Below, piece by piece: positions 10,412 through 10,851 of a stretch of 64,000 nt of DNA. The notes beneath the pieces were generated by a model that was not told the origin of the DNA, did not search any database, and was given only the letters and a program-made list of their open reading frames with translations. The stretch is from a virus: IMG/VR virus record IMGVR_UViG_3300008262_006988. The stretch is one strand, 5' to 3'. How positions within the stretch are numbered: the first letter of the stretch is position 1; each line of letters begins with the position of its first letter. Made by a program: the position numbers and the translations under genes.

Positions 10412-10851
10412 GGGGGTGTACTGGTTTCGACACATAATTGAAACTATGAGTGCATGTCGTGGTTGATCAGTTGGCCACGTTAAAAGCTGATCGAAAAACT
10501 AAACGCAGAAGACAACACTTCTGACCTCTTAGCTGAGGCCGAGTATATCTTCAACAACGCTGACGAGTTCCTCGCTGGCGTCGAAGATTACGAGCTCGCA
10601 GCCTAAGAGCCTAATAGAGGATCCTCTAAATCTATTTTGAAACGCAGAGGTTCTTGCGTGAGGTGACTAACGCGGTAAAACTAGTCATAGGCAGTATGCG
10701 GTCTTTAATCACACATACAGGTAGACTTTAAAAGATAGGTTGATGTGCCAAGATTGCCTTTAGTCAAACAAAAATCTAAAACATCCAAGCATGTGAAGAC
10801 CTTATAGCATAAGTTATTTGGACAGGGGTTCGAATCCCCTCACCTCCACCA
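10412..10851 (+). ncRNA. ssrA: tmRNA with 33-codon tag AEDNTSDLLAEAEYIFNNADEFLAGVEDYELAA (10505-10606)
   Basis: 5' GGGGGTG...TTCGAC; 3' T-arm GGGGTTCGAATCCCC and CACCTCCACCA with G3:U wobble; PK1 (CGTGG/CCACG, GATCAG/CTGATC); resume context AAAACTAAAC-GCA; tag ends LAA-stop. Confidence 0.95.

Follow-up and report, generated by a model that had tools for sequence, protein, structure and literature searches.

The window analysed here, a 64,000-nt stretch of phage DNA (IMG/VR record IMGVR_UViG_3300008262_006988), encodes a tmRNA that is very likely functional and whose 33-residue tag is very likely translated and selected. Sequence comparison places this gene in a clade of tmRNAs that is seen in viral contigs only, is horizontally mobile and is characterized by tags of 30-35 aa with a strongly conserved core. 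The common view of phage tmRNAs is that they are spares for something the host already has. The tag in the window is clearly diverged from those of the cellular tmRNAs with which it was compared, and is strongly selected in a lineage found in viral contigs only.

The gene is one-piece and complete, covers 440 nt (10412-10851, + strand) and encodes its own 3' CCA. ARAGORN and Rfam RF00023 return the same span, in agreement with the sequence-only reading, an earlier annotation made from the letters alone, which had described a complete 440-nt tmRNA. The Rfam match is full length (model 1-374, not truncated) and scores 130.8 bits, well above the gathering score of 47, with an E-value of 7e-51. 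The tRNA-like domain is present with its 7-bp acceptor stem, in which the third pair is the G.U of alanine identity, its T-arm and the 3' CCA. The 5' strand of the acceptor stem, GGGGGUG (10412-10418, +), pairs with 10841-10847 of the 3' strand, which with its ACCA end occupies 10841-10851 (+), and G3 forms the G.U pair with 10845. That third pair is G.U in 46 of 48 unique relatives, and compensatory changes are found at pairs 5 and 6. The T-arm (10824-10840, +), with a 5-bp stem and the loop UUCGAAU, is paired in 47-48 of the 48, again with compensatory changes. In PK1 (10458-10492, +), stem 1 joins 10458-10462 with 10475-10479 and stem 2 joins 10465-10471 with 10486-10492; pairing is kept in 44-48 of the 48 unique relatives at 11 of the 12 pair positions and in 35 at the other one, with several compensatory pair types. 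The PK2-PK4 region aligns poorly to the Rfam model (model positions about 110 to 290). Given that pairing was kept through compensatory changes in 48 unique sequences, the RNAs of this family are under selection as tmRNAs.

Several lines of evidence place the resume codon at GCA 10505, as the sequence-only reading had proposed. Rfam aligns this codon to the consensus resume codon, behind an A-rich frame-setting sequence (10494-10504, +) that ends in UAAAC and so puts U 10500 at -5 and A 10501 at -4. The E. coli counterparts are U85 and A86, with A86 the main determinant of frame choice (PMC2481249). The context is near-constant in 64 relatives, where AAAAACUAAA[CU]-GCA precedes nearly all of the tags. 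GCA 10505 also lies at gene position 94, the mode of the ARAGORN tag starts for one-piece genes in a comparison set of 99 bacterial tmRNAs that share the 5' 20-mer of the window gene and whose tags start mainly at positions 81-106. In addition, over the first eight codons of 48 unique relatives the column entropy is 0.35, 0.33 and 0.82 at codon positions 1, 2 and 3, while two control regions of the same 48 RNAs have flat entropy without codon periodicity. The frame that begins with GCA 10505 runs through 33 sense codons (10505-10603, +) before it reaches a UAA stop (10604-10606, +), an assignment resting on the Rfam alignment, gene position, codon periodicity and dN/dS. It gives exactly the peptide read earlier, with 10 D/E, no K/R and a net charge of -10.

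It is extremely improbable that the true tag is a shorter one, of 23 aa from GAG 10535 or of 15 aa from GCT 10562. The first of these starts is ARAGORN's own call for the window, 30 nt after GCA 10505, and the second had been named in the sequence-only reading as the rival resume codon. Neither has U at -5 and A at -4, and the codons upstream of both are periodic and evolve with a dN/dS of 0.21, which rules out the GCT start. ARAGORN's start, at gene position 124, also falls outside the main bacterial cluster of 81-106, and in some relatives the same program calls a full tag of 30-32 aa from the codon equivalent to GCA 10505. ARAGORN, which had been suggested as a check, therefore agrees with the gene span but not with the tag start, its 23-aa call being a truncation of the 33-aa frame.

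A degenerate DNA pattern of eleven core codons matched 65 stretches in IMG/VR and none in the genomes of 185,579 bacterial and archaeal species (one genome each). The tmRNA had no blastn match among 50,697 isolate phage records, and an exact 33-mer from its 5' end had none in the IMG/VR search set. The 64 loci of relatives comprise 50 unique coding sequences and 39 unique peptides, all of 32-35 aa, and a full-length homologous tmRNA of 411-472 nt is found in 58 of them. Over the whole tag, column entropy in the 48 unique relatives is 0.31, 0.29 and 0.84 at codon positions 1, 2 and 3. Residues that never change are encoded by varied codons, five for L9 and two or three each for E11, A12, E13, I15, N17, A19 and E21. 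By the pooled Nei-Gojobori method, residues 1-10 have a dN/dS of 0.21, and the columns outside the search pattern, taken together, one of 0.27; the value of 0.02 in the core is exaggerated by ascertainment, as these columns were fixed by the pattern. For the same reason, the near invariance of residues 11-21 in the set of 65 contigs is partly built in, and only smaller samples taken blind to the tag correct for it. The dN/dS of the insert had been suggested as a check. The ratios of 0.21-0.27 outside the pattern-fixed columns, together with tags of 32-35 aa in all 64 relatives and a near-invariant core encoded by varied codons, mark the approximately 24 extra residues as a selected peptide rather than a product of drift. 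The tag is thus, on these comparative data, under peptide-level selection from codon 1 onward.

The tag-blind sample consisted of viral one-piece tmRNAs chosen by a shared T-arm and acceptor (3' end), in which the resume codon could be set (n=33). Tag length in this sample is bimodal, with 30-35 aa in 26 of the 33 and 8-17 aa in the other seven. Among its 19 unique long tags, 15 have the core [LIV]A[EQ]A[EDT]x[IF][FIL] and 18 end in LAA. The sister subfamilies keep the length and a net charge of mostly -3 to -12, with one basic exception; their sequences otherwise differ. Given that the extra part is kept by viral contigs on unrelated backbones and is absent from the sampled bacteria, it must be under selection for some function.

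One unlikely but serious reading of these data is that the insert has no specific partner, and that only its length and its acidic, soluble character matter. The extra residues might help solubility of the fragments and access to the degron. Alternatively, a tag of 30-35 aa might fill the exit tunnel, and the faulty chain would then have left the ribosome completely by the time of termination. The tightly bimodal lengths in the tag-blind viral sample would fit such a role, as would the sister subfamilies that keep length and negative charge while their sequences differ, and amphipathicity is not significant outside the subfamily of the window. A pure spacer, however, would not be expected to hold eight residues (L9, E11, A12, E13, I15, N17, A19 and E21) invariant through synonymous changes, nor to keep the core motif in most of the long tags that were sampled without regard to the tag.

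Long tags are, across the sequences compared, a property of the one-piece viral clade and not of phage tmRNAs generally. Permuted two-piece tmRNAs with the same 5' 20-mer and tags of 10-16 aa of alphaproteobacterial or cyanobacterial type are present in many viral contigs (loci L007, L011, L014, L016, L018, L020, L021, L025-L032 and L040).

The tag can be divided into three parts. Residues 1-6, AEDNTS (10505-10522, +), are polar and like ordinary tag starts in translation, and fall within the stretch of residues 1-10 with the low dN/dS. AEDN is only loosely like the N-terminal SspB site of E. coli (AANDENY-like), and SspB was found in none of five complete or near-complete genomes that carry the family. 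Residues 7-24 (10523-10576, +) form the conserved acidic core around LLAEAEYIFNNADEFL, with near-invariant columns, and are probably helical according to AlphaFold2. Built on the family alignment, the model has helices at residues 5-17 and 19-24. Block-mean pLDDT is 85 and 92 over residues 1-20 but 71 and 51 over the flexible tail (residues 21-33), and for a 33-aa peptide such a model is weak evidence for structure. The sequence-only reading had noted hydrophobic residues at helical spacing. This is borne out only in part: the helical hydrophobic moment is 0.42 and peaks at 100-110 degrees, but it is modest (2.6% of shuffles reach this moment) and not general, as the same shuffle test was not significant in sister subfamilies or in mycobacteriophage Bxz1. 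Because the amphipathicity is modest here and not significant elsewhere, a single common helical surface is not established. A model of four copies of the tag associating with one another scored 0.10 against a mark of 0.42 and counts neither way. Mimicry of a longer protein was also considered, and a search with the 40-aa frame gave only four singleton ORFs, probably miscalled, over tmRNAs.

The last part, residues 25-33 (GVEDYELAA; 10577-10603, +), is a flexible acidic linker, modelled as coil, with a ClpX-type LAA end. The window tag ends in YELAA followed by UAA, and LAA ends 34 of the 39 unique family peptides. In most bacteria the determinant recognised by ClpXP and ClpAP is ALAA (PMC3985003). 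Since YELAA looks like an ordinary ClpX/ClpA-type degron, fragments with this tag would, from sequence, still be destroyed and recycled.

The window itself is T4-like phage DNA, with a G+C content of about 35%, that encodes tail-fibre and virion proteins and a carbamoyltransferase; the closest match of one virion protein, at 66% identity, is to proteins of T4-like cyanomyophages. ARAGORN and Rfam identify a phage tRNA island around the tmRNA, with tRNA-Pro(UGG) at 9354-9427 (+) and tRNA-Gly(GCC) plus tRNA-Ser(GCU) at 11332-11498 (+). The window also holds a 1773-aa ORF (720-6041, +) with a bactofilin domain at residues 456-552 (E 5e-19), unusual in a phage protein of this size, and, between hsp20 and the tRNA island, an 80-aa ORF (7863-8105, +) that matches DUF5661 (E 9e-13) and, weakly, an IF2 N-terminal domain.

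A non-coding element of about 140 nt (10063-10205, +) lies upstream of the tmRNA, inside an ORF-free tract (9958-10411), and recurs in 19 family loci at 86-96% identity. Twelve of these have it at close range, where it occupies 19-160 nt upstream of the tmRNA, ending about 17-22 nt before the 5' end, and in the remaining loci it is found 0.3-2.1 kb upstream. The element has no Rfam match, relaxed thresholds giving only a chance-level cyanobacterial S1 leader, and RNAalifold folds it into two domains supported almost solely by G-U wobble changes. Its possible roles include those of a leader, of a processing signal or of an independent RNA transferred along with the tmRNA; the link between the two is putative.

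The tag family is found on at least three unrelated phage backbones of 35-52% GC. Five complete or near-complete carrier genomes were available (170-217 kb, CheckV completeness 93-100%). One of them, G001, encodes a T4-type capsid protein and has 100 ORFs in common with a second, G003. In a third, G005, no match to the T4-type capsid family was found; G005 and G001 share 24 ORFs, which include PhoH, an M15 peptidase, a PQ-loop protein, a deaminase, a virion protein and small unknowns. A fourth, G002 (IMG/VR, 211,113 bp; locus L044), has 52% G+C, and its only RNA genes are a tRNA-Met and the tmRNA, which lies at 100235-100652, belongs to the same family and has a 32-aa tag. G002 shares five ORFs with G001 and, at E<=1e-5, none with G005. 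In DNA comparisons with the window, the tmRNA (75%) is the sole match in G005, and the tmRNA (82%) and one virion gene are the sole matches in G001. The genes around the tmRNA are not conserved across the family loci. As the tag core is kept on unrelated backbones, the tmRNA gene moves between unrelated phages, and backbones of 35% and 52% G+C suggest different hosts. G002 is therefore, on sequence grounds, evidence for transfer of the tmRNA between phages, probably of different hosts.

Four features were considered as pointers to the host. The 5' 20-mer is uninformative, as it is common to Betaproteobacteria, Clostridia, Verrucomicrobiota, Chlamydiota and others, and the 3' end of the tmRNA is equally uninformative, being generic in sequence. 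The gp23 homologue of G001 is only about 34% identical to that of any isolate. The cyanomyophage-like virion protein of the window was likewise set aside, psbA being absent from all five complete relatives.

There is a rather slim chance that the long tag was inherited unchanged from an unsampled host lineage with an equally long tag, in which case nothing about it would be phage-specific. Long tags do exist in cells, with 20-27 aa in 23 of 30 sampled Chlamydiota and 23 aa in a Treponema MAG. The window tag has a marginal similarity to chlamydial tags (0.012-0.035 of shuffles reach the score), and the closest isolate capsid protein is as distant as noted above. Such an origin is nevertheless difficult to reconcile with the absence of the core pattern from all of the bacterial and archaeal species searched, with the tags of mostly 9-11 aa in the 99 bacterial tmRNAs that share the 5' 20-mer, and with the unrelated backbones of low and high G+C that suggest different hosts.

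The Chlamydiota provide a cellular parallel. Their tmRNAs likewise have long acidic tags, of a 22-aa type AEPKAECEIISFADLEDLRVAA with the central acidic/hydrophobic stretch AE.E.I...AD, and the RNAs of the sampled genomes are 363-442 nt long, mostly about 420. Unlike the window gene, these are cellular genes with tags 6-13 residues shorter. In one Chlamydiota genome (L325), ARAGORN reports a 10-aa tag at gene position 147 where the frame is open back to the normal resume position, for about 28 aa, and the call may be truncated. The Verrucomicrobiales, which belong to the same superphylum as the Chlamydiota, have tags of 11 aa. In chlamydiae, ClpX recognises the tag by its terminal residues (PMC9601184). 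According to the sequence-only reading, most tags are about 10-15 aa long. The most frequent length in the current tmRNA database is indeed 10 aa (PMC11915505), but the statement is too strong in view of the 20-27 aa of Chlamydiota and the 25 aa of Bxz1.

Among other known systems, the canonical one-piece tmRNA (SsrA of E. coli) has the same G.U third pair, T-arm, PK1, U -5/A -4, GCA resume codon, LAA end and UAA stop (PMC2481249; PMC3985003). The window gene differs from it in having a tag of 33 aa in place of the commonest 10, in being phage-borne and part of a tRNA island without smpB, and in an RNA length of 440 nt. Mycobacteriophage Bxz1 (cluster C), long listed among phages with ssrA genes (PMC4131195), also has a tmRNA in a tRNA cluster with an acidic tag (25 aa by ARAGORN) that lacks K and R. 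However, Bxz1 is an actinophage with a high-GC genome and its tag ends in ALV, not LAA; a motif shared with the Bxz1 tag was looked for and rejected as not significant (0.65 of shuffles reach the score). In Mycoplasma, an extended tag co-evolved with Lon and the extra determinants change the protease (Gur and Sauer 2008 and Ge and Karzai 2009, as cited in PMC3985003). Those tags end in AFA in cells without ClpXP. As the window tag keeps its LAA end, its insert looks like an addition, not a replacement.

Also comparable are the two-piece tmRNAs of marine T4-like phages (pelagimyophages, Melnitz and some cyanophages), which are likewise aquatic, T4-like and without smpB (PMC9004378). In contrast to the window gene, they are permuted and have short host-like tags (10-16 aa by ARAGORN in IMG/VR scans), and they group phylogenetically with alphaproteobacterial or cyanobacterial tmRNAs (PMC9004378). 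About 2.3% of isolate phages carry a tmRNA, for which roles in maintaining the hijacked translation machinery and in recycling host proteins have been proposed (PMC9004378), as has sensing of the host state (PMC7162821). Tag length is not a subject of the papers that we found on phage tmRNAs.

If the core is a signal, its reader could be encoded by the phage or by the host. SmpB was found in none of the five complete carriers and no SmpB domain was present among the window ORFs tested, consistent with the earlier statement that the window has no smpB. ClpP and Hsp20 were each found in one of the five. Sharing of ORFs was scored by tblastn at E<=1e-5, at which a small, fast-evolving phage partner could be missed. 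That an unrecognised phage adaptor or phage Hsp20 reads the insert is very unlikely. The hsp20 gene does lie 2.6 kb upstream of the tmRNA in the window, and two small, uncharacterised proteins are encoded repeatedly at 1-10 kb from it, one in 17 and the other in 12 of the 63 family loci. Yet no neighbour is constant around the tmRNA in the family loci, for which reason a conserved neighbour was rejected as the partner; G005 and G002 share no ORF at the threshold used; and each of the recurrent small proteins is missing from G005 or G002. With Hsp20 in a single complete carrier and no phage partner common to all, the capture of tagged chains by phage Hsp20, which the sequence-only reading had offered as an example, is not supported. 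Its broader proposal that the insert adds an interaction surface is still a reasonable reading of a selected peptide with a modelled helix.

The more frequent of the two small proteins is about 92 aa long, has an acidic tail and the motif HHKDRDCHWYIETKWSYG, and is common to G001 (17287-17565; L221:17287-17565:+) and G005; it lies 1.4-10 kb from the tmRNA in its 17 loci and has no convincing Pfam family. The other, of about 75-87 aa (G001 204834-205097), lies 1-5 kb downstream of the tmRNA in its 12 family loci. It is one of the five ORFs common to G001 and G002, with a homologue in G003 as well, and is absent from G005 and the window.

As no phage protein detectable at E<=1e-5 is present everywhere with the tmRNA, a core that acts as a binding signal would most likely be read by a conserved host component. 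We give slightly less than even odds to the proposal that a host factor reads the insert as a specific binding signal. That the core is kept across backbones unrelated in their proteins, from 35% to 52% G+C, also points most readily to a host protease, adaptor or chaperone, or to the ribosome itself, and not to a phage protein.

The explanation that we favour as a whole, at about even probability, is that of a working phage tmRNA with a two-part tag, in which a degron is joined to a host-read core that alters how the fragments are handled. Under this explanation, the phage tmRNA would be charged with alanine by the host AlaRS and delivered by EF-Tu and host SmpB, the use of the host protein being likely because the phage family encodes none. 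In the infected cell, with host transcripts decaying and host ssrA presumably no longer made, it would free ribosomes that have stalled on broken messages. Truncated messages should be abundant in a T4-like infection, and the tagged chain would be released at the UAA. Core residues 7-24 would then act as a second, sequence-specific signal that changes the speed or the route by which rescued fragments are handled.

A more far-reaching version, which we consider improbable, is that the tag is a takeover device. Fragments with the core and the ClpX degron would flood the cell and occupy or re-programme a conserved part of host proteostasis (ClpX/ClpA, Lon, a chaperone or the ribosome exit site), with the length of 30-35 aa tuned to the exit tunnel, and the device would have spread horizontally among unrelated phages of different hosts. 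If so, it could blunt abortive-infection responses triggered by proteases or speed the recycling of amino acids.

The findings also bear on annotation. In about 12 long-tag genes ARAGORN truncates the tag, which it begins at gene position 171 (9 aa) or 123-124 (23-24 aa) and not near position 93 with the conserved frame; examples are the window (10535) and loci L008, L023, L024, L037, L038, L002, L010, L012 and L036. It also called only 34 of 94 viral stretches taken by a shared 3' end, many of the 94 being probably permuted or cut genes. With truncations and missed calls such as these, published censuses of phage tags based on ARAGORN may underestimate tag length.

For the phages that carry this family, the tag suggests that the phage controls the fate of rescued fragments and not just whether stalled ribosomes are rescued. 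A core of 16-18 residues beside a standard degron offers a simple, testable handle on phage control of host proteolysis, and a new portable tag for degradation or binding might be derived from it.
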